NCBI GenBank assembly: GCA_965246965.1
Contig: CBDFGD010000001.1
Span: forward strand, 516,705 to 580,704
DNA: 64,000 nucleotides
Origin: Vicinamibacteria bacterium
Lineage (GTDB): Bacteria > Acidobacteriota > Vicinamibacteria > Fen-336 > CBDFGD01
Direction of reading: 5' to 3'
The notes below the pieces were generated by a model that was not told where the DNA came from, searched no databases, and was given only the letters and a program-made list of their open reading frames with translations. This document shows positions 1 to 58,289 of the stretch, one piece after another (within the stretch, counting starts at the first letter, position 1; every line of letters starts with the position of its first letter). The position numbers were made by a program, and so were the translations under genes.

Positions 1-1325
<1,325 letters not shown>

Positions 1326-1387
1326 CTATCCTCCCAGGGTCCGCGCCGGGTCCGAACAAACGCGACACCCTAGCATGGGGTCTCTCG

Positions 1388-1447
1388 GGTACCGCTTCGG
1401 GGCAGGCCACGCGGGTCGCTCGGGCACCGCTCCGGGGCAGGCCACGC
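1388..1447. repeat. Two-copy imperfect direct repeat (about 25 bp, ...CGGGGCAGGCCACGC)
   Basis: GGGTACCGCTTCGGGGCAGGCCACGC and GGGCACCGCTCCGGGGCAGGCCACGC in the intergenic region. Confidence 0.7.
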
Positions 1448-1449
1448 TG

Positions 1450-1482
1450 ACCAGGAGCAGCGGTTCTACCGCTGCTCCTGGT
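1450..1482. terminator. Perfect 15-bp-stem hairpin downstream of the YceI gene (terminator or REP-like)
   Basis: ACCAGGAGCAGCGGT-TCT-ACCGCTGCTCCTGGT; no U-tract follows. Confidence 0.55.
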
Positions 1483-1535
1483 ATCGCATTCAGCAAGGAG
1501 GCCTGCCCTACGCGGCAGCTCTCGCTCGGGCTGGC

Positions 1536-2147
1536 TCAGGAAGGTGCTTCTTCTTCCGTCTTCTGGTTGAGCTCGAGGTTGATCTCGACATCCACCTCGT
1601 CGCCCAGGACGACCCCGCCGGCGTCCAGCGTGCTGTTCCAGAGGATCCCGTAGTCCTTGCGGTTGAGCCGGGTGCGCGTCGAGAAGCCGGCTTTGGTTCT
1701 GCCGCGGTTGTCCTGCGCGAAGCCCAGGAACTCGACGGGCAGCACGACCGTCTTGGACACGCCGCGCATCGTCAGCTCACCCTCGACGTCGAACTCACCC
1801 TCGGCCTTCTTGGTGACCGAGGTGCTCTTGAACGTGATCTCGGCGTGGTTCTCGACGTCGAAGAAGTCAGCGCTCTGCAGATGGGTGTCGCGGCGCTCGC
1901 TGGCCGTGTCGACGCTCGCGGCCTGGATCGAGAACGCGACGCTCGACTTGGATGGAACTTCCTTGTCGATGACCACCTCGCCGGCGATCTCGTTGAAGCG
2001 GCCGCTCACCCTGGAAACCAAGTGGCGGATGCGGAAAGTGGCGTCCGAATGGTTGTTGTCGATCACGAAGGTCTCGGCGGCGAAAACCGGAGTGCACAGC
2101 GACAACGCCGCGATGAGCGCGATGGCGATCCTCGGGTACTGCTTCAT
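1536..2147 (-). CDS. YceI family polyisoprenoid-binding periplasmic protein
   Basis: Signal peptide; IDNNHS..F.IRH.VS.V.GRF, RDTHLQSADFFD, LNRKDYGI; GGAGG RBS before ATG 2147. Confidence 0.93.
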   Translation of the reverse strand: MKQYPRIAIALIAALSLCTPVFAAETFVIDNNHSDATFRIRHLVSRVSGRFNEIAGEVVIDKEVPSKSSVAFSIQAASVDTASERRDTHLQSADFFDVENHAEITFKSTSVTKKAEGEFDVEGELTMRGVSKTVVLPVEFLGFAQDNRGRTKAGFSTRTRLNRKDYGILWNSTLDAGGVVLGDEVDVEINLELNQKTEEEAPS

Positions 2148-2173
2148 GACGTCCTCCTTGAACAAAGTGGGCA

Positions 2174-3262
2174 TTAGGATACCCGTCCGCGGGCTGCGAC
2201 GCGCCAGGTGGCCTCTACGCGGTCGCCGTGGACGGCGTGGACCTGGTCGTGCAGGTTGGACACGACGCAAGAGTGATTCGGGAGCACCCGCACACGCTGG
2301 CCGACCGCGAATGTGTCGGCCTCGGCGACGTCGACGACGCCGTGCTCTTCGCTGAGTCGCGCCAGCGTGCTGCCGGTACCGACGATCGATCCGAAGCCGT
2401 CCGCGCCGGGGCGCAGCCCGTCGCTCGAGAGCGTTTTGCTGCCGGCGTCGAGGACGGCGCGCTTCGAAGCGGGGGAGCTGACCACGGTCGCGAGCACGGT
2501 CATCGTGCAGTCGTCGATGCTGCAGGTCCCCAGCGCTACCTGAGTGCGATCGTGGTACACGTAGTTACCGGGTCGCGCCTCGGTGACGCCTTCGACGGCC
2601 ATTGCGGAGCGTGCCGTGGGTGTCGAGCCGACAGACACGTGCTCCGCCGCAATTCCATCCGCACGCAGCGCTGCAGCGACGCTCACGACCGTCTCGCCCT
2701 CGGCCTTTCCAATGGCGGCAACGCGTTCGGGGGAGTCGGCGTGATAGCCGTGCCCGGCATGGGTGAAGACGCCCCGGAAGCTCAGCCCATCCAGAGCGGC
2801 GATCGCCCGGGCGACTTCCAGCGCATTCTCGGGGAGCACGCCGACGCGATGGAAGCCCGAATCGATCTTGAGTCGAACGTCGAGACTGCGGCCCGCCTTT
2901 GCGAACGCGGTCGCCAAGCTGGCGGCCCCGGCGACGCTGTCGACGCCGACTGAGAGGCGAGCGCGGTCGGCGAGGGCGAGCAGCCTCTGCGCCTTCCCCT
3001 TCCCGACGGTGGGGTAGGCGATGAAGATGTCGTCGAGCCCGGCGTCGGCGAACACTTCGGCTTCACCGACCTTGGCGAGGGAGATGCCGACGGCACCCGC
3101 CGCGAGCTGCATCCGGGCCACCTCGGGCAGCTTGTGGGTCTTGGCGTGAGGCCGCAGCCCCACGGCGGCTGCCCGAGCCGCATCGGCCATGCGCGCGATG
3201 TTCCGCTCGAGGACGTCGAGATCGACGAGGACGGCGGGTGTGTCGAGCTCGTCGATGTGCAT
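2174..3262 (-). CDS. Fold-type III PLP enzyme, DSD1/D-threonine aldolase-like
   Basis: LDTPAVLVD, RPHAKTHK (PLP lysine), GSTPT, RPGNY, LSEEHG, PNHSC. Confidence 0.9.
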   Translation of the reverse strand: MHIDELDTPAVLVDLDVLERNIARMADAARAAAVGLRPHAKTHKLPEVARMQLAAGAVGISLAKVGEAEVFADAGLDDIFIAYPTVGKGKAQRLLALADRARLSVGVDSVAGAASLATAFAKAGRSLDVRLKIDSGFHRVGVLPENALEVARAIAALDGLSFRGVFTHAGHGYHADSPERVAAIGKAEGETVVSVAAALRADGIAAEHVSVGSTPTARSAMAVEGVTEARPGNYVYHDRTQVALGTCSIDDCTMTVLATVVSSPASKRAVLDAGSKTLSSDGLRPGADGFGSIVGTGSTLARLSEEHGVVDVAEADTFAVGQRVRVLPNHSCVVSNLHDQVHAVHGDRVEATWRVAARGRVS

Positions 3263-23372: not shown

Positions 23373-25419
23373 CTAGCTCTCGACTGTCTCCTGGAGCGCT
23401 TCCCAGGCGCCCATCAGCTCGTTGACCTCGGCAGCCAGGGCCTCGTACTCCGCCACCAGCGGGGTGGCCTCCGCCCGGTCCTCGTAGAAGCCGGGCTGGG
23501 CCATCGCCCGCTCCAGCTCGCGGACGCGGCCCTCCTTGGTGGAGATCTCGCGCTCCAGATCGCGCACCTTCGAGCGGGCTCTCCTCGTTTCCATCTCGCC
23601 CGCAGCCTTCTCCTTCCTCCGGAGCCGGGGTGCCAGTGGGTTTTGTGGTGTCGCGGTGGCGGGCGCCGAGTCACCCGACGGGCCACGCGCGGCCTGCCGA
23701 GCCTGGCGTTCCTCGCGTCGGCTCTTGCGCCGAGTCGACGCCGCGCCGATCGGTTCGGTCGCCTCACTCGGCTCGCCCTGTGGGATTCGTCCGCGTGTCG
23801 GCGGCGCCGTCGGCTCGCCGCTGTTTCCACTCGAGGAACTCCTCGTAGCCGCCGGGGTAGCTGAGAATCCCGGCGTTTCCAACCTCGACGACCTTCGCGG
23901 CCAGGCGGTCGATGAAGTAGCGATCGTGAGAAACGAACACGATCGTCCCGTGGTAGTCGAGCAGCGCGTCGAGCAACACCTCTTTCGAATCGATGTCCAG
24001 ATGGTTCGTCGGCTCGTCGAGGAGCAGGAGGCTCGAGGGGACGAGCAGCATCTTGGCCAAGGCCAGGCGGTTTCGCTCGCCGCCGGACAGCACGCCGACC
24101 TTCTTGTAAACGTCGTCACCCGCGAACAGAAAGCCACCCAGTATCGTGCGGATGCGCGGCACCATTCCCATCGGGCTGACGCTCGTCATCTCCTCATAAA
24201 CGGTCGAGCGGGGGTCGAGGATCTTCGCCTGGTCCTGTGCGAAGTACTCCATCACGACCTGGTGGCCGAGCTCGTGGGTTCCCTCGTCAGGCCGGTCGAC
24301 GCCGGCCAGTACCCGCATCAGCGTTGATTTGCCCGCTCCGTTCGGGCCGACGAGGGCGACGCGATCGCCGCGCTCGATCATCAGGTCGATTTCGTTCAGG
24401 ACGACCTTGTCGCCGTAGGCGCGACGCACACCCTTCAACTGGAACGAGATGCGCCCCGGCCGCGGGGCGTCGGGGAAGGTGAAGCGGATCTTCTTGCGCT
24501 GCGGCGGGATCTCGATGCGTTCGATCTTGTCGAGCATCTTGACGCGACTCTGCACCTGACGCGCCTTGGAAGCCTTGTACCGGAAGCGGCTGATGAACGC
24601 ATCCGCCTTCTCGATCTCCTCCTGCTGTCGGCGGTGAGACTCGAGCAGCCGCTCCATGCGGGCGGCGTGCTCGACGAGGTAGTGGGAATAGTCGCCGTGG
24701 TAGTCGGTCAGGGTCTTGAGGCCGACCTCGGTGATGCGGTGGATCGACGCGTCCAGGAAGTAGCGGTCGTGGGCGACGAGAACGACGGAGCCGGGGTACT
24801 CGGCGAGGTACTCCTCGAGCCAGTTGCGCGCGGGCAGGTCCAGGTGGTTGGTGGGCTCGTCCATCAGCAGCAGGTTGGGGCGAGCGAGCAGCAGCTTGGC
24901 CAGAGCGATGCGCATCTGCCAGCCGCCCGAGAACTCTTCGCAGGGCCGGCTCCAATCAGATTTCTCGAAACCGAGCCCGCCCAGCACGTCGTCGATCCGC
25001 GCATCCATCTCGTAGCCGCCCAGGTGCTTGAAACGCTCCGTGGCCTCGGCGTAGCGAGTCAACAGCGACTCGTGCTCCGCCTCGTCGGCATCGTCGTGAC
25101 TCAACCGCTCCTCGATACTCCGCTGCTGCTGCTGGAGCGAGAGCAGCTCCTCGAAGGCCAGGCAGACCTCGTCGTAGAGCGACCGGCCCCGATGCTCGAG
25201 ACCGTCCTGCGGCAGGTACCCGACGCTCGTGTCCGTCGCCATGCGGATCTCGCCGGAATCGGGCTCGTCGAGTCTTGCCAGCATGCGCAGCAGCGTCGAC
25301 TTGCCGGAGCCGTTCGGGCCGGAGAGACCGATCCGATCGCGCTTCTTGACGTGCCAGCCGGTATCTTGGAACAGCACGCGTTCTCCGAACCGCTTGCAGA
25401 GCCGCTCGATATGAATCAC
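23373..25419 (-). CDS. ABC-F family ATP-binding protein (frameshift at about 23790 before the C-terminal coiled coil)
   Basis: Two NBDs: GPNGSGKS/FSGGWQMR/DEPTNHLD and GPNGAGKS/LSGGE/DEPTNHLD; no TM segments. Confidence 0.93.
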
Positions 25420-27689: not shown

Positions 27690-27950
27690 TCAGCCGATCT
27701 TCCCCTTGGCGATCGCGGCCTGGACGGTCGTGATGGTCTTGCTCATCATGCCGTTGAGCGCTTCGTCCTGCTCGGCCTTCGGTAGCGACTGTCCCGCTAT
27801 TTCGGCGTACGAGACCTGCTTGCGCCAAAGCACGCTCCCGCCGACGTAGACACGGACCTCGAAGCACGACTGGTCGACGCCGAGGTCCTCGGCCTGGATG
27901 TGGTACTCCTTGCCTTCGTGGTTGAAGACACGGTTGGCGCCGACGATCAC
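27690..27950 (-). CDS. Small hypothetical protein (G.N....YH.Q.ED type)
   Basis: MIVGANRVFNHEGKEYHIQAED; GTGA overlap with the upstream ATPase. Confidence 0.78.
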   Translation of the reverse strand: MIVGANRVFNHEGKEYHIQAEDLGVDQSCFEVRVYVGGSVLWRKQVSYAEIAGQSLPKAEQDEALNGMMSKTITTVQAAIAKGKIG

Positions 27951-29002
27951 GAGCGCGAGGTGTGTTCTGGCGACGCTTCGCGCGCCGCGATCGAGACGGA
28001 GCGCCTCAGCCAGCGCTCGAAGAACCAGTTACCGACGCCGAGGCGATCGCCGTCGGTCGCGATGTAGCCCATCATTCGAAGACCGAGCAGAACGGGCTCG
28101 ACGTCGTCCTCGGTGCGCCGCACGGCTTCGGCGAGCTCGGCCCGCTTGCGCCGTCCCTCGCGGCCCAGCTCCTCGAGAATCTGCCGCTCGATCGGTTCGA
28201 GAGTCTGAAAATCGATAGAGAAGAAGTTCGAGACCATCTCGTCGGCCGCCACCTGGTCGATCGTGGCGCGGGCGTCGCCGTTCTGGAACATGCGGCTCGC
28301 GATCAGCTGCAGCAGGAAGGGGTGACACGCGGTGCGTTCGATGACGAGCTCGACGGCCTCCTCGCCGAAATCGGCGCGGTTCAACAGCTGGCGTGCGGAT
28401 TCAGCAGCGAGCGGCGTGAGGTAGAGCGGCGGGATGAAGCCCTGCAGAAACGGTGACGTCGCGAAATCGGTTGCAGCGTCGAGGCGGCTGAGGCGCCGCG
28501 TCGACGTCATCACGGCGCGCGCGTCGTGGCCCCGCTGGAAGATCCGGCGCAGCCGCGGCAGGACCGGGGCATCGCTCTTGGCGACCGTCAGCAGCTCCTC
28601 GGCCTCATCGATGAGCAGCAGCAGGCGCCAGCCGCTGCGCACCGTCCGGCGCACCAGCGTCGTCAACATGTCGGCGACGTGGAACCCCTCGACATCCTCA
28701 GGGGCCACGCTGGCGGCGCGCCGGAAGGCCTCACTGTCCTCGATGCTTCCCAGCAGACTGTCCGCTAATCCGCGCGCGTCGCCGCTGCCTTCGAGGTCCC
28801 AGTAGAGCGGAATCCAGGGCGTCTGGCTGCTCTGCTGGACCCGCCACTCGAGCTCCTTCAAGAGGCTGGTCTTGCCGAGACGGCGGGCGCCGACCACCCA
28901 GAGCGAGTCGCGCTCCCCTTCGAGGATCTCCTGGAGCATGGCGCCGCGGCCGAAGAAATTGTCGCCGCGAACCCAGCTTCCGGCGATGAACGGGTTACGC
29001 AC
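27947..29002 (-). CDS. STAND-like AAA ATPase with probable C-terminal winged helix
   Basis: NPFIAG...FFGR, GARRLGKTS, LLIDE, HPFLLQ. Confidence 0.88.
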   Translation of the reverse strand: MRNPFIAGSWVRGDNFFGRGAMLQEILEGERDSLWVVGARRLGKTSLLKELEWRVQQSSQTPWIPLYWDLEGSGDARGLADSLLGSIEDSEAFRRAASVAPEDVEGFHVADMLTTLVRRTVRSGWRLLLLIDEAEELLTVAKSDAPVLPRLRRIFQRGHDARAVMTSTRRLSRLDAATDFATSPFLQGFIPPLYLTPLAAESARQLLNRADFGEEAVELVIERTACHPFLLQLIASRMFQNGDARATIDQVAADEMVSNFFSIDFQTLEPIERQILEELGREGRRKRAELAEAVRRTEDDVEPVLLGLRMMGYIATDGDRLGVGNWFFERWLRRSVSIAAREASPEHTSRS

Positions 29003-29041: not shown

Positions 29042-31477
29042 TCAGGCTGACACCTTGTCCTCGACCGGTCGCGGCTCCGGATGCCGTCCCTCGAAGAGGA
29101 CGTCGGGCTCGATCTCGTCGATGTCTTCGACCCGGACGACCGTGCGGTGCTCCTCGATGATGCGGTTCACGGCGTGGATGCAAAACTTCTGGATCAGGTA
29201 GGGCTTGCCTTCGCTGCGCTCGATGATCGTGTCCACCGCGTCTGGCTCGTACCGGAAGATTCCCTCGACCGGAGTCCGAATCAGCGCCTCCGCCTCCTCT
29301 CGGCCGAACGGAGGCAGCACGATCTCGTCGAAGAAGTTGTACCAGGGACTGCCTTCGCTCTTCCAGGTTCTCTTGATCCCGACACCGCTCATGATGGCCA
29401 CGAGGTGCTCGGAGAACGTCTTCATGAAGATGCTCCGGAGGCGCTGGTTCGTGCGCTCCGAGTACTCGTTGAGCGCGTCGACCTCGTCGATCAGCAGGGC
29501 GAGTTTGACGTGTCCGGGCGTGCGCGTCTTCAGCGACTCGATGACGAGCCGGACGTCGTGGTTGAAGTCGCGGCCGTCGAAGTCGTCGTTCCCGGCGCCG
29601 AAGCGGAGCGCCGCCTTGGAAGCCTCGTCGATCTCGAGTTGATCGAGGACGTCCGACATCACGGTGTGGAAGAAGCTCGACTCGGGCACACCCTGCAGGT
29701 CGGTGAAGACGGGGAAGAAGCGGTAGTCGGTGTCGGCGTCGGCTTCGAGCGCTCGCTTCAGGTGGTAGAGGAACGTGGTCTTGCCGATGCGGCGCTCCCC
29801 GGTGATGACGAGGCTGTTGTGGTGCAGCACGTTCATCATCCGCGCCATCACCTTTTCGCGGCCGAAGAAGAGATGCGCGTCCATCACCGGCGCGCCGGCG
29901 ATGTAGGGGTTGAAGCGCCGCCGGACGGCCCGGCGGCGGCGCAGATGCTGAAATAGAAAACCGGCGAAGAGCAGGCCCGTCGCCGAGGCCACGGCGGACG
30001 GGAGGAACGCCGACGTCTCGTGGAAGCGCAGTCGTCGCGTCAGCCGCAGCGTCTCGGAGTGCGTCAAACCAGTGGAGTCCGTCGCCGTGACCACGATCTG
30101 GTTGAGGCCCGGCTCGAGCGGGAACTTGCGATCGAAGCGAACGTTGCGCGACGACGAGGTCAGGTCGAAGCTCGGCGGCGGCGCCTGCTCTGCAACGACC
30201 TGGTCGCCGATCCTGAATTCGACCTTGGCGATGCCGCGGTCGTCGCTCGCCACGCCCACGATGGAGATCGAATCCGCCTCGATTTCCAGCTGCTGTGTTC
30301 GCGGCGCGAACACCGTGAGCGCGGGCTGCAGGTTGGGAAGCCAGCGGCTCACCAGCGCCTCGCCGATCTTCATCTCAGCGAACGCGAGTCGCTCCTGGGC
30401 TTCGACGTTGCCCGGATCGAGGCGAAGCAGATTGGCGATCCGCACCTGGGCCTGGGCGAACTCGCCAGCCAGCAGCAGCTCCTGAGCCTCGCGTCGGAGC
30501 TCCTCGATGCGAGCGCGCAGGTCGCGCTGCTGGCGCATGCCCTCCAGGATCTTGAGCGCGGTCTCGAGCAGATCCTGAGCCACCTTGTTGTCGGGGTTGG
30601 CGGCAGCGTCGGTCAGAGGCCGCACCGCTTCTTCGTACTGGCCGGCTTCGAACGCTGCCTTGCCTTGCTGGAAAGCCAGCTCGAGGGCGTTGCGCGTTCG
30701 CGTCGCGAGGATGAGGTCCTGCGCTTCCTGCTTGCCGGCCTGCGCCGGAGAATTGCTGGGATCCAGGCCCAGCACCTGATCGAATGCCACGACCGCGGCA
30801 GTCGCGTTGTTCGATGCGAGCAGCTGCTGGCCGCGCGACAACTCCTGCTCGATGCGCTCGCGCCGGCCCGCCTGCTCTTGCAGGTTGCGCTCTCTAGCGA
30901 GGATTCGTTCCTGCAACTGCGTGACCCTTTGTTGCGAGTCCCTGCCGAGCCCCATGGCCGCAACCTGCGCCTGTGCGAGCAGCGTCAACGGCTCCTCGAA
31001 CTGGTTCTGGGCGAAGAGGGCGTCCGCCTCCTTCAAGAGGCGCTCGACCTCCTCGCGGGCCAGCCTCGCCGCCTTTTGGCGCTCGCCGTTCTCGGCCTCG
31101 GTACGGAACTGGCGGAGGTCGGCGTAAGCGTCGGCGTTCCGGACCGTGCCGCGGTCTTCCGAGATGTTGAACATCCGGATCGCCTGTGGGAAGTCCCCCT
31201 GGCGGAGGTAGCAGAGGCCCAGCTGGTAGTAGGGGAGGTAGTCCTCGAACTGGAGACCGTACGTCCGCTCCTTCAACCCGGGGGTGGGCTTGATCTTGAT
31301 CGCAGCGAGCAGGTTTTCGACGGCCTGATCGTATTGGGCTTTGGGGATCTGCTCGTCGCGGGCCTCCAGGTAGTGGTCGTACCACTCTCGGACGGCCCAG
31401 GCCGGGGCGGGGACGAGGAAGAGGATGCAACACGCTGCGGCAATCGCCCGAAGCGGGCTCGAGCGACGCCGCGACAC
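29042..31477 (-). CDS. Signal peptide - TPR - Ig-like - TM - STAND-like AAA ATPase
   Basis: Signal peptide, TPR-like helices, GVASDDRGI...L.PGLN.I.V.ATD Ig-like motif, TM plus RRRR, NPYIAG..FFGRE, GERRIGKT, LLIDE. Confidence 0.88.
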   Translation of the reverse strand: MSRRRSSPLRAIAAACCILFLVPAPAWAVREWYDHYLEARDEQIPKAQYDQAVENLLAAIKIKPTPGLKERTYGLQFEDYLPYYQLGLCYLRQGDFPQAIRMFNISEDRGTVRNADAYADLRQFRTEAENGERQKAARLAREEVERLLKEADALFAQNQFEEPLTLLAQAQVAAMGLGRDSQQRVTQLQERILARERNLQEQAGRRERIEQELSRGQQLLASNNATAAVVAFDQVLGLDPSNSPAQAGKQEAQDLILATRTRNALELAFQQGKAAFEAGQYEEAVRPLTDAAANPDNKVAQDLLETALKILEGMRQQRDLRARIEELRREAQELLLAGEFAQAQVRIANLLRLDPGNVEAQERLAFAEMKIGEALVSRWLPNLQPALTVFAPRTQQLEIEADSISIVGVASDDRGIAKVEFRIGDQVVAEQAPPPSFDLTSSSRNVRFDRKFPLEPGLNQIVVTATDSTGLTHSETLRLTRRLRFHETSAFLPSAVASATGLLFAGFLFQHLRRRRAVRRRFNPYIAGAPVMDAHLFFGREKVMARMMNVLHHNSLVITGERRIGKTTFLYHLKRALEADADTDYRFFPVFTDLQGVPESSFFHTVMSDVLDQLEIDEASKAALRFGAGNDDFDGRDFNHDVRLVIESLKTRTPGHVKLALLIDEVDALNEYSERTNQRLRSIFMKTFSEHLVAIMSGVGIKRTWKSEGSPWYNFFDEIVLPPFGREEAEALIRTPVEGIFRYEPDAVDTIIERSEGKPYLIQKFCIHAVNRIIEEHRTVVRVEDIDEIEPDVLFEGRHPEPRPVEDKVSA

Positions 31478-31478
31478 G

Positions 31479-32539
31479 CTACTTCTCGTAGAGCGCGGCG
31501 ATCAGGGCCCCCCGAGCCGTCGTCGTCAGCGGGTCGGCCGCCATCCGGACTTCGGAGATCTCGATGGGCAGGGACGTCCCACGCACCGCCTTCTCGAACA
31601 TGTCGCGGAAGCCCTTGGGCTTGGCAGTGCCGCCGGACAGCACGATCGGCAGCGGCCGATCGGCTCGCGGCAGCTGCTCGGCGCGGTTGAGGGACTGCTT
31701 CAGAGCACCGACGAGGCTGTGGATCAGGTCCTCGTAGTAGATCTGCAGCGCCTTCTCGTGCTTGCTCTTCGGGGAACGCGAGAGGTCGAGCCCCTCTTCC
31801 TTGATCAGCTTGACTCGTGTCGCCTGCTCGGCGAGCACAGACCCGGCCGAAGCGTCGATGAAGTCGCCGCCCTTGGTGATGCTGAACATGATCGACGGGA
31901 TCGAGAGGAAGGCGAGTGCGACGTTGCACATGCCGCCGCCACAGGAGATCCCGATGCCCGTGAAGTTGTCGTTCTCGAGCTCCGCGAACACGACGGCGAG
32001 ACCCTCGTTGATGGCCATCGCATCGTACCCGTAGCCCTCGAACACGCGCCGCATGCTGGCCTCGTGGTAGGTCAGCTCGGCGTCCTTGCCTGCAGCGGGG
32101 CCGGTACCGAGAAGGCCAGCGCCTCGCCTTTGGTGGCCGCCTTGGGCAGCATCTGCTTGAGGATGGCTTCGATGACCGACATCGCAGCCCGCTCACGCGG
32201 ATTGAGCAGCCCGTCCGCCATCGGACGCCGCGCCTCCGCGTTGAACATGTTGGCGAACCGCTCCGTCGCGGTGCCGTAGATCACCAGCTCCTCGTCTTCA
32301 CGGTAGTAGGCGATCTGGTTCTGCTCCAGGATCTTCTCCGTGAAACGGGAATGGGGGACCTGGAAGAAGGCGTTCAGCTCGGAACTCGCCTTCACGTCGT
32401 TGCCTGTCTTGCGAGCCACGACGATCTTGCTCGTGCCGACGTCTATGCCGATGGGGTTTGAATTGGTCTCAACCAACTTCTCGATCTCCTCCTGCGAGGC
32501 GGTGCTTGGTTTCCAAAGGTGGTCCTTCCGCTCGCTCAT
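31479..32539 (-). CDS. Actin-fold ATPase resembling haloarchaeal volactin (frameshift at about 32088)
   Basis: Phosphate-1 GIDVGT, RRPM..G, INEG.A, GIS.GGG..N, KGGDFID, LSGGT, ARGAL; restoring one G in CAG(G)GC joins the two ORFs. Confidence 0.82.
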
Positions 32540-32543
32540 CTGG

Positions 32544-33971
32544 TTAGTCTCCTTGACGTCGGTGATCGTCGAGCGACGCCTTGCGCTCGAGTTCTTCGTC
32601 CGCCTCCACCTGCTGCTCGCGCCACGTATCGTACAGGGCCTGGCGCTCTCGCCGTTGCTCCTCGAGCGAGCGTCCGCGCAGCTTCGCTTCACGCTCGAGC
32701 TGTCGCTCGGCGGCTTCCACTCCGGACCATGGACGTCCCATGATGGCCAGGAAATCGTCGTCGTACGAAAAACCGAAGAGGGCCACCGACGGGGCCGGGA
32801 CGTTGTACGCGTCCGTGAGGCCGAAGGCGGCGAACGGAAAACCGCGCGCCCAGTCGAGGTGGTGGCCGATCAGGTGGCTGCGCGGGTTCACGCTCGTGAT
32901 GCCGTGGGTGATGCCCATCTCCGCGGGAATCTCGTAGCGCTCCCGCAGATGCTCGGTGAGATTGCGACCCGCGGCGAACTGAGCCTGGGTGATCGGCAAG
33001 GCGAGGCCACCGTCCCACCGCGTCTCGAAACACACGCCGAGGAAGGAGTGGTTCAGGTTGAGGTAGACCGTGTCTCCATTGGCCCAGATCGAGTTGCCCG
33101 CGTGATTGGCCTTGGAGCCCTCCTCGACGGTGCGGAACACCCTGCCGAACCGGTCGATCACGTAGTTGTAGAGGGACTTGCGTCGGATATAGCGCAGCAG
33201 CCGATGACTCGAATCGCGCAGGCTCTCGTTGTACTCCGCCTCGAGCGGCCAGATGTCGCTCTCCGAAGTGTGGAACAGGATGCCGACGGGTTGCTTCCGC
33301 GGCTCACTGATGAGCCCGCTGCTCCGGCTGAAGACGTGATACGTACGCGGGGTGCCGGGGACGGCCATCTTGGTCTCGATGTGCAGCCCGTTGGAGTACT
33401 GCTCCCACTGAGCCCCTTCCTCGACCAGCCAGACGCGATCGGGGCGTTGGGGGAACGAGAGCCAGTCGAGGCTGGAGCTCTCTGCCACATCGCTCACGGA
33501 GTCAGCGCGAACTGTCGGTGCGGCGGTCGTGTCGGGTTCGTACAGGTGATACGTGCCGGCAAGGATCACTGCGCTGGCCGTGGCGGCGAAGGCGCCGGCG
33601 AACCAGCGGCGGTCGCCCAAAGGCTGGGGCGATCTGACCTTGTGCGGGCGGGTGGGGGCCCCACGGCGCCCCAGCGGAACCAGGGTCTCGTCGGGTCTGG
33701 TGTCGATGCCGCGCAGCATCCGGTGGCTGGGATAGCGGTAGATGACACGCCTGAGCGTCTTCGTGGGGACGGCCTCGACCTTCCGCTGTTGAGTCTCGCC
33801 CGCCTGCATCGAGGAGCGTAGATAGCGGAGCTTGCGGACGGGATCCCGGATTCCGCGGCTGACAGACTCGACCTCGGCCTCGAACTCTGCGCGCGGCACG
33901 GCAGGCGCCTCACGCCGCCCCGGCGCGCTGCGCGAGCGCGACGTCGGTCGATTCGTACTCCTCCCCGCCAT
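32544..33971 (-). CDS. Membrane-anchored N-acetylmuramoyl-L-alanine amidase (Amidase_2/PGRP-like) domain protein
   Basis: TM followed by GILFHTSE, YVIDRFG, ANHAG, N..FLGVCFE, ITHG. Confidence 0.78.
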   Translation of the reverse strand: MAGRSTNRPTSRSRSAPGRREAPAVPRAEFEAEVESVSRGIRDPVRKLRYLRSSMQAGETQQRKVEAVPTKTLRRVIYRYPSHRMLRGIDTRPDETLVPLGRRGAPTRPHKVRSPQPLGDRRWFAGAFAATASAVILAGTYHLYEPDTTAAPTVRADSVSDVAESSSLDWLSFPQRPDRVWLVEEGAQWEQYSNGLHIETKMAVPGTPRTYHVFSRSSGLISEPRKQPVGILFHTSESDIWPLEAEYNESLRDSSHRLLRYIRRKSLYNYVIDRFGRVFRTVEEGSKANHAGNSIWANGDTVYLNLNHSFLGVCFETRWDGGLALPITQAQFAAGRNLTEHLRERYEIPAEMGITHGITSVNPRSHLIGHHLDWARGFPFAAFGLTDAYNVPAPSVALFGFSYDDDFLAIMGRPWSGVEAAERQLEREAKLRGRSLEEQRRERQALYDTWREQQVEADEELERKASLDDHRRQGD

Positions 33972-34010: not shown

Positions 34011-34487
34011 TTATAGGCCGGCGCTATTGCCGGAACAAGCTTTGCTGCTTGAGTTTGCGCGCTTCCTCGGCCCGCCGAGCGGGCGCGGAAACAGCAAGCT
34101 GGCCTCCGCTCGGCGGAGATACGGAATCAGCAACGCGCAGGAGGGTATGTGAAACAGGCTCTGCAGGACGATGGAGCGTGGGAACTCGACGGGAGCCTGG
34201 AAGAGAGCCATCCCGAGCACCACGACGTACGTAATCAGGACCGCCAGGCAATAGACCATCGCGATGGAGCGACAGAGCGCGATCCGCTGGTAGAGCCCGT
34301 ACGCCAGCAGGAAGTGGGCAACACCCCGAAACACCGCGTCCCAGATGGGCCAGAAGGCCAGCGCCTCGAGGTCGGCCAGCAGCGTCGCCATCTCGATGAG
34401 GCCCGCAAGGACGAAGAATCCCGATGTCACGATCACGCCACGCGGTCGTGGCTGGCGCAGCAGCGCAGCGTCGGCCGGGGAACTCAC
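34011..34487 (-). CDS. Hypothetical 4-TM membrane protein
   Basis: RPRGVIV start followed by four hydrophobic segments. Confidence 0.75.
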   Translation of the reverse strand: MSSPADAALLRQPRPRGVIVTSGFFVLAGLIEMATLLADLEALAFWPIWDAVFRGVAHFLLAYGLYQRIALCRSIAMVYCLAVLITYVVVLGMALFQAPVEFPRSIVLQSLFHIPSCALLIPYLRRAEASLLFPRPLGGPRKRANSSSKACSGNSAGL

Positions 34488-56944: not shown

Positions 56945-56965
56945 GCCGCAAGATTACCGTGGGCG

Positions 56966-58062
56966 GGAGTATCCATTTAACCGGTGTAAACTGAGCCGGT
57001 GGATCAGCCTCGTGCTGGCACGCACTATCCGCGGTCCGTGGGCGAGTTCCAGGCCTGGTTCCGGACCGATGCGGACTGCCTGGAGTGGCTGCGGTGGCCC
57101 GCCAGCTTCGCCTGCTTGGACTGCGGCCATGATGGGGGCTGGCGGCTGGGCGACGGTCGCTTCATGTGCTCAGGGTGCGGCGGCCGTACGTCGGTGACAG
57201 CGGGCACGATCTTTGACCGGACGCGCACGCCGCTAACGGTTTGGTTCACCGCCTGCTGGCTGTTCGCCACCGGCAAGGACGGGATCTCGGCGCTGAGCCT
57301 GAAGCGGACGCTGGAGATCGGCTCCTACCAGACCGCGTGGGCGATGCTCCATCGGCTGAGGTCGGTGCTGGTGCGCCCGGGCCGGGACCGGCTGGCCGGG
57401 ATGGTACAGGTAGATGAGACCTACATCGGCGGTGAGGAGGCGGGGCTGCGCGGCGGCCGGGCCAAAGGCAAGAAGGTTTTGACCGGGATCGCGGTGGAGG
57501 TCCGGGAGCCGAGAGGATTCGGACGGTGCCGGATGCTGCCGCTGACCGATGCGTCGGCCGCCTCGTTGCACGCCTTTGTAACGGCTCACGTCGAGCCGGG
57601 CGCGAGGGTCGTCACCGACGGCTGGCAGGGCTACCGCGGGCTGGAGAAGCTCGGCTACGTCCACGACCGGCGCAGCCAGCGGGCCGCCCGAACCCGCGGG
57701 GAGGATCCCGGTGAGCTACTGCCCGCAGTGCACCGGGTCGCCTCGCTAGCCAAGCGGTGGTTGCTGGGTACCCACCAGGGCTCGGTGAACGACGCGCACC
57801 TGGCCAGCTACCTGAATGAGTTCGCGTTCCGCTTCAACCGCCGCACCTCCCGCAGCCGCGGGATGGTGTTCTACCGAGTGCTCGAGCTCGCCGTCGCCCA
57901 CGACCCGGTGCGCTACCAGGACCTCATCGCCACCCAGCGGCCCCGGGCAGTGCCGCCCTCGCAGCCGCAGGCGCGCGGGCACCCGCCGAGCCTGGAGCGC
58001 TCTCCAGCGAACCGCCCGTGGAGAACTGCCAACCTGGACTCCTCCGGTTAAATGGAGACCCC
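56966..58062 (+). mobile_element. IS1595-family insertion sequence
   Basis: TIRs GGAGTATCCATTTAACCGG and CCGGTTAAATGGAGACCCC flank the transposase; no target-site duplication visible. Confidence 0.9.
56999..58051 (+). CDS. IS1595-family DDE transposase
   Basis: Zn ribbon CLDC...CSGC, TAGTIF, VDETY, TDG..GY, YLNEFAFRFNRR. Confidence 0.94.
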   Translation: MDQPRAGTHYPRSVGEFQAWFRTDADCLEWLRWPASFACLDCGHDGGWRLGDGRFMCSGCGGRTSVTAGTIFDRTRTPLTVWFTACWLFATGKDGISALSLKRTLEIGSYQTAWAMLHRLRSVLVRPGRDRLAGMVQVDETYIGGEEAGLRGGRAKGKKVLTGIAVEVREPRGFGRCRMLPLTDASAASLHAFVTAHVEPGARVVTDGWQGYRGLEKLGYVHDRRSQRAARTRGEDPGELLPAVHRVASLAKRWLLGTHQGSVNDAHLASYLNEFAFRFNRRTSRSRGMVFYRVLELAVAHDPVRYQDLIATQRPRAVPPSQPQARGHPPSLERSPANRPWRTANLDSSG

Positions 58063-58289
58063 CAACGCTCGTGATGCCCGACGAGGTGAAAGACGTGGCA
58101 GAAGCGCTCGAGCCGCTCGATTCGGAATGGCTTCGCGGGCGCTACGACGCCGTCGTGCCCGAGAGCTACTCGCGGGCATACGGCGCAGAGGATCGCGATT
58201 ACACTTCCGAGTGGTTCGAGAACGTGCGCGAGCTGTTCTTGAGTGCGGCGCGCCGGGATCGTGCCGTCGTTTTCACGTTGACGCAGTAG
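58063..58289 (+). pseudogene. C-terminal fragment of a YfbM/DUF1877-like protein truncated by the IS
   Basis: PDEVKDVAEAL...WLRGRY...Y..EWF..VRELF..AA....AVVF begins right at the IS end. Confidence 0.6.

Follow-up and report, generated by a model that had tools for sequence, protein, structure and literature searches.

The 64,000-nucleotide stretch of a Vicinamibacteria bacterium genome analyzed here (referred to as the window) encodes, at positions 31479-32539 of the minus strand, an actin-fold protein that is almost certainly a member of the volactin family (Pfam PF25216). Our favored, though by no means settled, reading is that the gene is an orthologue of a volactin-family gene that is fixed in the order of the host, and that the copy in this genome is a recent pseudogene in a genome rich in insertion sequences (IS) and containing other broken genes. 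The gene is spread over two reading frames: the 5' frame runs from an ATG at 32539 to a stop at 32072-32074 and translates into 155 amino acids, and the 3' frame, entered at 32099 and closed by a stop at 31479-31481, translates into 206 amino acids. The 5' part of the gene (32100-32539) scored 89.6 bits on PF25216 (cut-off 35 bits) over profile positions 3-122 of 321, after which the frame is out of register up to the premature stop, and the 3' part (31479-32099) scored 181.2 bits over positions 126-321 of 321. Comparison with a family member from Natrinema, which itself scores 465.7 bits on PF25216, gave 35% identity for the N-terminal half (residues 4-120, E 3e-26) and 37% identity for the C-terminal half (residues 119-321, E 5e-47). 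Since the halves adjoin colinearly on the Volactin profile as well as on the Natrinema protein, they represent two pieces of one gene and not a chance match.

The two translations contain the motif blocks RFANMFNAEARRPMADGLL, LTYHEAS, INEGLAVVFAELENDNFTGIGISCGGGMCNVALA, FSITKGGDFID, ALQIYYEDL, LSGGTAKPKGF and ARGAL, and every block that an earlier note on this DNA, made from its letters alone, had quoted could be located in them. The nucleotide-binding blocks DVGTSK, GISCGGGMCN and LSGGTAKPKGF are present in the split gene, with the latter two residing in the 3' part. Intact proteins of relatives are 350-355 amino acids in length, and orthologues in one piece scored 275-277 bits on PF25216 while covering profile positions 3-321 in a single frame. 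The MreB_Mbl model (PF06723, cut-off 27 bits) reached 12.5 bits for the C-terminal half and 18.7 bits for an orthologue, both under the cut-off, and an NCBIfam search of both halves yielded 17.1 and 14.8 bits for MamK and 14.6 bits for salactin, none of which is near the cut-off of 400 bits set for each of these two models. The earlier note had proposed a volactin-like protein distinct from MreB, FtsA and MamK and had called for profile searches, a phylogeny and a structure prediction; its proposal held in that PF25216 was far over its cut-off and the MreB_Mbl and MamK models failed, the tests covering the MreB, MamK and salactin models, and the trees described below likewise set the family apart from MreB. 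The AlphaFold model of an orthologue displayed an actin fold (predicted local distance difference test [pLDDT] 72.7, predicted template modeling [pTM] score 0.74), and its best matches among solved structures were MreB (TM about 0.6), BeeR (0.67), MamK and Arp1.

Comparison with archaeal members defined the position of the bacterial proteins within the family. Five haloarchaeal secondary replicons (Halogeometricum, three of Haloarcula, and Natrinema) carry family genes whose products show 36-37% identity to the orthologue (E values from 2e-65 to 2e-69), and three of these products scored 436-466 bits on PF25216 versus 275-277 bits for the bacterial proteins. The proteins of Vicinamibacteria and Steroidobacteraceae formed one clade with a support of 99 in both a FastTree analysis (82 rows) and a quick IQ-TREE analysis (50 rows), and the three haloarchaeal proteins formed another with supports of 100 and 99; most rows beyond these groups carried no organism label. 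Taken together, the separate clade and the lower profile score mark the bacterial proteins as a distinct subfamily of the volactin family and not close copies of volactin. The statement in the earlier note that the motif blocks closely follow volactin was therefore too strong, given 35-37% identity to haloarchaeal members, a clade of their own and about 275 versus 436-466 bits, and an archaeal volactin in a bacterium is better described as a bacterial, amidase-coupled subfamily of the volactin family. The bacterial proteins share with volactin (VolA, HVO_2015) of Haloferax volcanii the Pfam family, the size class and an actin/MreB-like fold, as well as the mentioned whole-length identity to haloarchaeal members, among which HVO_2015 itself was not one of the sequences compared. 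In contrast to volactin, they are found in a bacterial host that has a peptidoglycan wall and encodes an MreB of its own, are extended at the N-terminus by about 28 residues (M-x-ERKDHLWK...), and in the genome studied here are encoded by a frameshifted copy.

The actin gene was found in 40 of the 41 genomes of the host's order (host counted), with one uninterrupted full-length match in 35 of the 40 other genomes. The match was cut by contig ends in three genomes (G034, G037 and G022), consisted of a 47-position piece only in G011, and was absent from G036, a genome that is 71% complete. In a sample of 300 further Acidobacteriota genomes, each at least 80% complete, nine contained strong matches (233-275 bits), three scored 38-39 bits, seven stayed under the cut-off and 281 were without a match. 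The gene is universal in the order and patchy across the phylum. A scan of genome contigs yielded 409 loci, and the best 80 of these were compared for gene neighborhood. The closest named relatives were metagenome-assembled genomes of Vicinamibacteria and Acidobacteriota with 63-77% identity to the query orthologue, and the best 80 loci extended to the Steroidobacteraceae (Gammaproteobacteria), where identity was 55-63% and where the cultured strain Peristeroidobacter soli JW-3 was represented. The existence of a joint Vicinamibacteria/Steroidobacteraceae clade together with the patchiness in Acidobacteriota suggests that the actin gene, along with the amidase gene it is paired with as detailed below, may have moved between phyla.

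At the protein level, 3640 of 8000 scored candidates matched at E <= 0.001, and the best 120 of these all carry PF25216. Those that bear a name are annotated as "hypothetical protein", "actin-related protein", "cell division protein FtsA" or "actin-like ATPase involved in cell morphogenesis". A profile search of 1.84 billion representatives returned 1388 clusters at E <= 0.001, 424 of them at E <= 1e-30. Many representatives (P0131, P0151, P0176, P0190 and others) exhibited N-terminal extensions of 150-570 residues or two matched stretches. Two huge uncultured phages also encode family members, with 31-35% identity.

The break in the window's copy maps to 32097-32100, a run of G on the plus strand and of C on the coding strand, which is one base shorter than in relatives and lacks the third base of an Ala codon. 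In 12 orthologues LAFSVPA is followed by eight residues and LTYHE, while the window reads LAFSVPAP and then leaves the frame; adding one base at the break restores the orthologue spacing between SVPA and LTYHE exactly. As it stands, this copy does not form a single full-length open reading frame (ORF), since it is interrupted by the stop at 32072-32074. The earlier note had foreseen a frameshift that could be repaired by adding one G, and one base is indeed missing, but its placement at about 32088 was off by approximately 10 bases.

We consider it likely that this frameshift is real and not an assembly error. Contigs from three public sequencing runs of one sample matched the window sequence in its four-G form with 0 differences, namely one contig of 10976 nucleotides at depth 12.4 from run X1, one of 422 nucleotides at depth 2 from run X2 and one of 1029 nucleotides at depth 2 from run X3. 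A relative of about 95% identity, represented in run X5 of another study, has one extra base behind 32099. No RNA dataset was listed among those that contain the locus. Contigs of 422-3008 nucleotides at a mean word depth of 2-2.7, as well as two X2 contigs that lie one base apart, point to long and accurate reads; if the reads are of this kind, a homopolymer error shared between runs is unlikely. Confirmation of the frameshift by reads, which the earlier note had listed as an outcome that would speak against its proposal, is thus probably what was obtained, in the form of contigs of three runs from one sample that all carry it.

The general condition of the host genome bears on the same question. 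The host is a Vicinamibacteria-type acidobacterium, and its assembly comprises 5.75 Mb in two contigs with a completeness of 98.35% and a guanine-cytosine content of 66%. Comparison of the genome with itself revealed 289 regions of at least 500 bp with at least 97% identity to another place, amounting to 465 kb or 8.1%. When 44 well-conserved genes of the relative G005 served as queries, three of them proved to be split between frames in the host genome, and a conserved host gene contained an in-frame TGA inside a 390-column alignment of 68% identity. The 22 housekeeping genes inspected, with a total of about 18,400 codons, had open frames of normal length (rpoB, rpoC, gyrA, gyrB, two tuf, infB, dnaK, recA, atpD, ftsZ, uvrA, clpB, clpA/C, three lon, ftsH, rpoD, mutS, dnaA and polA). 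A seemingly broken gyrB, suggested by an EGDSAGG motif in a 177-amino-acid ORF, was rejected because the true gyrB is whole at 815 amino acids.

Several individual features of this kind were recorded. Window positions 56947-58086 contain an IS1595-type insertion sequence with a transposase ORF at 56999-58051 and 53 other full-length copies of 98.5-99.9% identity. The alpha-glucan phosphorylase gene (DUF3417 and Phosphorylase domains) on contig 2 (3573470-3575594) is distributed over three frames by two shifts in comparison to both G005 and G009. Within the window, an ABC-F (Uup-like) gene on the minus strand (23376-25401) is split: one frame, which closes at 23764, contains both ABC_tran domains together with the linker, and the C-terminal ABC_tran_CTD (43.7 bits) is located in a different frame. 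At the position of the in-frame TGA (contig 2, about 2143290-2143820) the gene of a relative encodes the Cys of an FTGGCT motif, and the TGA is likely a selenocysteine codon.

The most serious alternative, which we regard as unlikely yet far from negligible, is that a base was lost from a short G homopolymer during assembly or consensus calling and that the gene is intact and working as in the relatives. The sole defect is one base in a G run, and a missing base in a short homopolymer is a classic consensus error. Furthermore, when compared with 20 orthologues the halves retain 89 of the 91 columns that are invariant and 39 of the 43 that are nearly so, and 30 listed differences from the X5 relative (18 more are unlisted) include 25 on third codon positions with each half in its own frame. 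Judged by the invariant columns, the actin gene exhibits no decay beyond the one deletion, which fits an error equally well, and the damage appears to be young whether it is real or an error. The confirming runs all derive from one sample that is probably the source of the assembly, so that a systematic read error would be common to all of them, and they were available as contigs and not as raw reads, with the read type being deduced from these contigs as the library type is not on record. Approximately 7-8% of conserved genes are frame-split, as expected from an indel-prone assembly. The contrast between 0 of 22 housekeeping genes and 3 of 44 conserved genes is not significant by gene count and is suggestive only, and the expectation of about 3.6-4.4 housekeeping splits by length relies on approximate lengths and a confounded census based on the relative G009. 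In this census 13 of 165 queries were frame-split, which provides a rough rate only, as the queries included off-frame and antisense ORFs, most of the 30 "in-frame stops" came from these or from sequence ahead of true starts, and a split may belong to either genome. Against an error stand the agreement between contigs made independently from three runs, whose length at a depth of 2-2.7 argues for accurate reads, the absence of splits in the 22 housekeeping genes, and decay of a type that indel errors cannot produce (about 290 IS-like repeats and the in-frame TGA in a conserved gene).

The reading as a volactin-family orthologue that has recently become a pseudogene in this genome gains its wider context from the gene next to it. 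An amidase gene (32544-33971, minus strand), encoding a 475-amino-acid protein that scored 48.5 bits on PF01510 (Amidase_2, N-acetylmuramoyl-L-alanine amidase, cut-off 26 bits), ends with its stop 4 bases ahead of the actin ATG. In relatives the actin gene starts 4 to about 10 bases downstream of the amidase gene. In 77 of the 80 loci, which represent two phyla, the actin gene is immediately preceded by a gene for an amidase homologue, and in the three exceptions (L028, L046 and L079) the available sequence ahead of the actin gene is shorter than 300 bases. The pairing is very probably obligate. Peristeroidobacter soli, the partner protein of which scored 47.8 bits on PF01510, has only the actin-amidase pair in common with the other loci, its flanking genes encoding an O-methyltransferase, a fatty-acid desaturase and a RES-Xre pair; because these flanks are unrelated, the pair constitutes the minimal common unit.

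The partner protein of the window consists of a basic N-terminal region with the motif I-x-DPV-x-KLRYLR, an Ala-rich hydrophobic stretch, the Amidase_2 domain and a charged C-terminal helix. In the alignment of partner proteins the N-terminal region is conserved and basic, with the blocks I-x-DPV-x-KLRYLR and P-x4-RR-x2-YR, and is followed by the hydrophobic stretch, the strongly conserved blocks YSNGLRI, FHTSESD, IDRFGRV, A-x-HAG, LPIT-x-AQ, V-x-HG and IG-x-H-x-DW-x-RGFPF-x-AFGLP, and the charged helix. Invariant residues include the His of FHTSESD and the His of V-x-HG as well as the His and Asp of IG-x-H-x-DW. By analogy with the residue roles in AmpD and T7 lysozyme, either the His or the Asp of IG-x-H-x-DW could presumably serve as the third zinc ligand. 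Alignment with the orthologues predicts that the amidase protein of the window is anchored in the membrane.

The partner resembles the periplasmic peptidoglycan amidases AmiD, AmpDh2 and AmpDh3 in that its outer domain matches PF01510 at 48.5 bits, and in a Foldseek search the best 11 among the matches listed were all Amidase_2 enzymes (AmpDh3, AmiD, AmpDh2 and AmpD), all of them matched weakly. It differs from these enzymes in the weakness of the structural match (E 0.04-0.3), in having a long conserved tail at the N-terminus that is predicted to be cytoplasmic together with a charged C-terminal helix, and in always being paired with an actin gene.

Other genes of the neighborhood are less constant. 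The gene for an 811-amino-acid TPR/ATPase protein (29042-31477, minus strand) starts 1 base after the actin stop, and its product combines a signal-like N-terminus and TPR repeats with a Big_7 domain, a hydrophobic segment at residues 490-509 and a P-loop ATPase_2/AAA domain. It is followed in the cluster by a gene (27947-29002, minus strand) for an AAA_22/STAND-like ATPase of 351 amino acids. Both follow the pair in many Vicinamibacteria loci, but all 18 loci of the Steroidobacteraceae type (L071, L074 and L084-L099) lack them, and they therefore do not belong to the minimal module. On the other side, upstream of the amidase gene, a 158-amino-acid membrane protein with three hydrophobic segments and no Pfam family is encoded at 34011-34487 on the minus strand, and its gene occupies the same position in several Vicinamibacteria loci.

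A comparable arrangement surrounds the haloarchaeal genes. In the passages of PMC12126565 covered here, a CdpA-like four-helix protein, HVO_2016, adjoins volactin. In three haloarchaeal replicons a gene for a DUF7139 membrane protein was located directly upstream of the volactin-family gene (L160 2791-3690, L161 2923-3831 and L162 2971-3894), and these neighbors fit the CdpA-like neighbor of volactin as it is described in that part of PMC12126565. Haloarchaeal and bacterial loci thus both have a membrane-protein gene directly upstream, yet the bacterial partner is an Amidase_2 protein and not a four-helix CdpA-like/DUF7139 protein, and no sequence similarity was found between DUF7139 and the bacterial amidase protein. 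The parallel appears to be one of arrangement, not of ancestry.

Volactin forms dynamic ATP-dependent filaments in Haloferax, has a role in cell shape, and its filaments touch the membrane with their tips, according to the portions of PMC10869688 that we drew on. By analogy, the intact protein of the relatives would bind ATP and form cytoplasmic filaments as volactin does in Haloferax. The amidase protein may offer these filaments a docking site in its conserved basic N-terminal tail, an interaction suggested by the fixed and tightly spaced pairing with a membrane protein. The filament could then place or gate wall cleavage at the MurNAc-L-Ala bond from inside the cell, apart from the MreB system. 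In the genome studied here, the one-base deletion at 32097-32100 would end translation after 155 residues. That the filament steers the amidase is a tentative proposal drawn from gene order and conserved motifs. Slightly more doubtful is the full scenario, in which Vicinamibacteria and Steroidobacteraceae would hold, by horizontal transfer, an MreB-independent cytoskeleton that grips the tail of an amidase and decides where the wall is cut, and which would have been lost here as dispensable after a change of lifestyle.

Three observations count against a steered, membrane-anchored amidase. Of the usual zinc triad, no more than two His stand out as clearly invariant in the alignment of the amidase domain, the Foldseek search with the amidase-domain model (pLDDT 69.2) returned no match at E <= 0.001, and the Ala-rich hydrophobic stretch of the window protein remained under the hydropathy threshold used. 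The first two would also be expected if the pair worked otherwise, with Amidase_2 acting as a non-catalytic wall anchor or the filament serving another envelope task, such as separation at the division site or a task involving the downstream TPR/ATPase proteins. An alternative role of this kind would be in line with the envelope-spanning TPR-ATPase and second ATPase that follow the pair in most Vicinamibacteria, and the contact of volactin filaments with the membrane by their tips, as given in the same portions of PMC10869688, would suit it as well. Nevertheless, we judge it rather improbable that the pair works in such a way, as the blocks typical of active Amidase_2 enzymes (FHTSESD, A-x-HAG and V-x-HG) are conserved across two phyla and none of the 18 Steroidobacteraceae-type loci contains the downstream ATPase genes.

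Two further explanations carry very little weight. It is highly improbable that the two frames are joined by programmed ribosomal frameshifting or that the halves act as separate proteins; an internal ATG at 32054 in the second frame would allow for the latter, but the gene is one uninterrupted frame in 35 of 40 related genomes, the 95%-identical relative has the extra base, and the required -1 shift would occur at CCG GCC CCG, a site that lacks the X XXY YYZ pattern of slippery heptamers. No actin fold is known to function when cut between its two halves, and programmed frameshifting was rejected on account of the missing heptamer and the intact relatives. Weakest of all, with next to no chance of being correct, is an identity of the protein as MreB, FtsA, ParM, MamK or Hsp70 type: the NCBI pipeline labels some orthologues as cell division protein FtsA, JGI labels some as actin-like ATPase involved in cell morphogenesis and the top solved-structure match is MreB, but the MreB_Mbl and MamK models failed by the margins given above, the host encodes its own MreB (contig 2, 2965992-2966963, 497 bits) as well as FtsZ and a further actin-fold gene beside ftsZ, and in the trees the host MreB occupies a branch of about 3.4 changes per column apart from all 81 family members.

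The locus, which is the single PF25216-matching one in the whole host genome, also invites comparison with other bacterial systems. MreB with RodZ represents a cytoplasmic filament that is coupled via a membrane protein to wall enzymes, and the general logic of the actin-amidase pair would be alike, with both systems containing an actin-fold ATPase (TM about 0.6). They differ in that the MreB_Mbl model failed here, the true MreB is encoded elsewhere in the genome, and the partner is a hydrolase-domain protein of the same operon and not RodZ or synthases. Similarly, Mad28, the second actin-like protein of deep-branching magnetotactic bacteria, is a bacterial actin apart from MreB and MamK, but the protein studied here has a different partner and is not accompanied by magnetosome genes.

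The volactin family is known and curated, and automatic resources already call bacterial clusters "Volactin domain-containing protein". The volactin literature, in the parts covered here, treats volactin as archaeal and mentions neither a bacterial homologue nor a link to an amidase, with the supplements of PMC10869688, which possibly list non-archaeal homologues, lying outside this scope; within the literature searched, volactin has been studied only in Haloferax. The same family is now recognized as a fixed gene of a soil and marine order of Acidobacteriota and of Steroidobacteraceae, where it stands beside a wall amidase. The broken copy of the window, which is probably dead, is of smaller value in its own right and indicates that the gene can be lost in a decaying genome. 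The pairing of actin and amidase points to a connection, so far unstudied, of actin filaments with cleavage of the wall, and Peristeroidobacter soli JW-3 is a cultured, harmless organism in which this connection could be tested.

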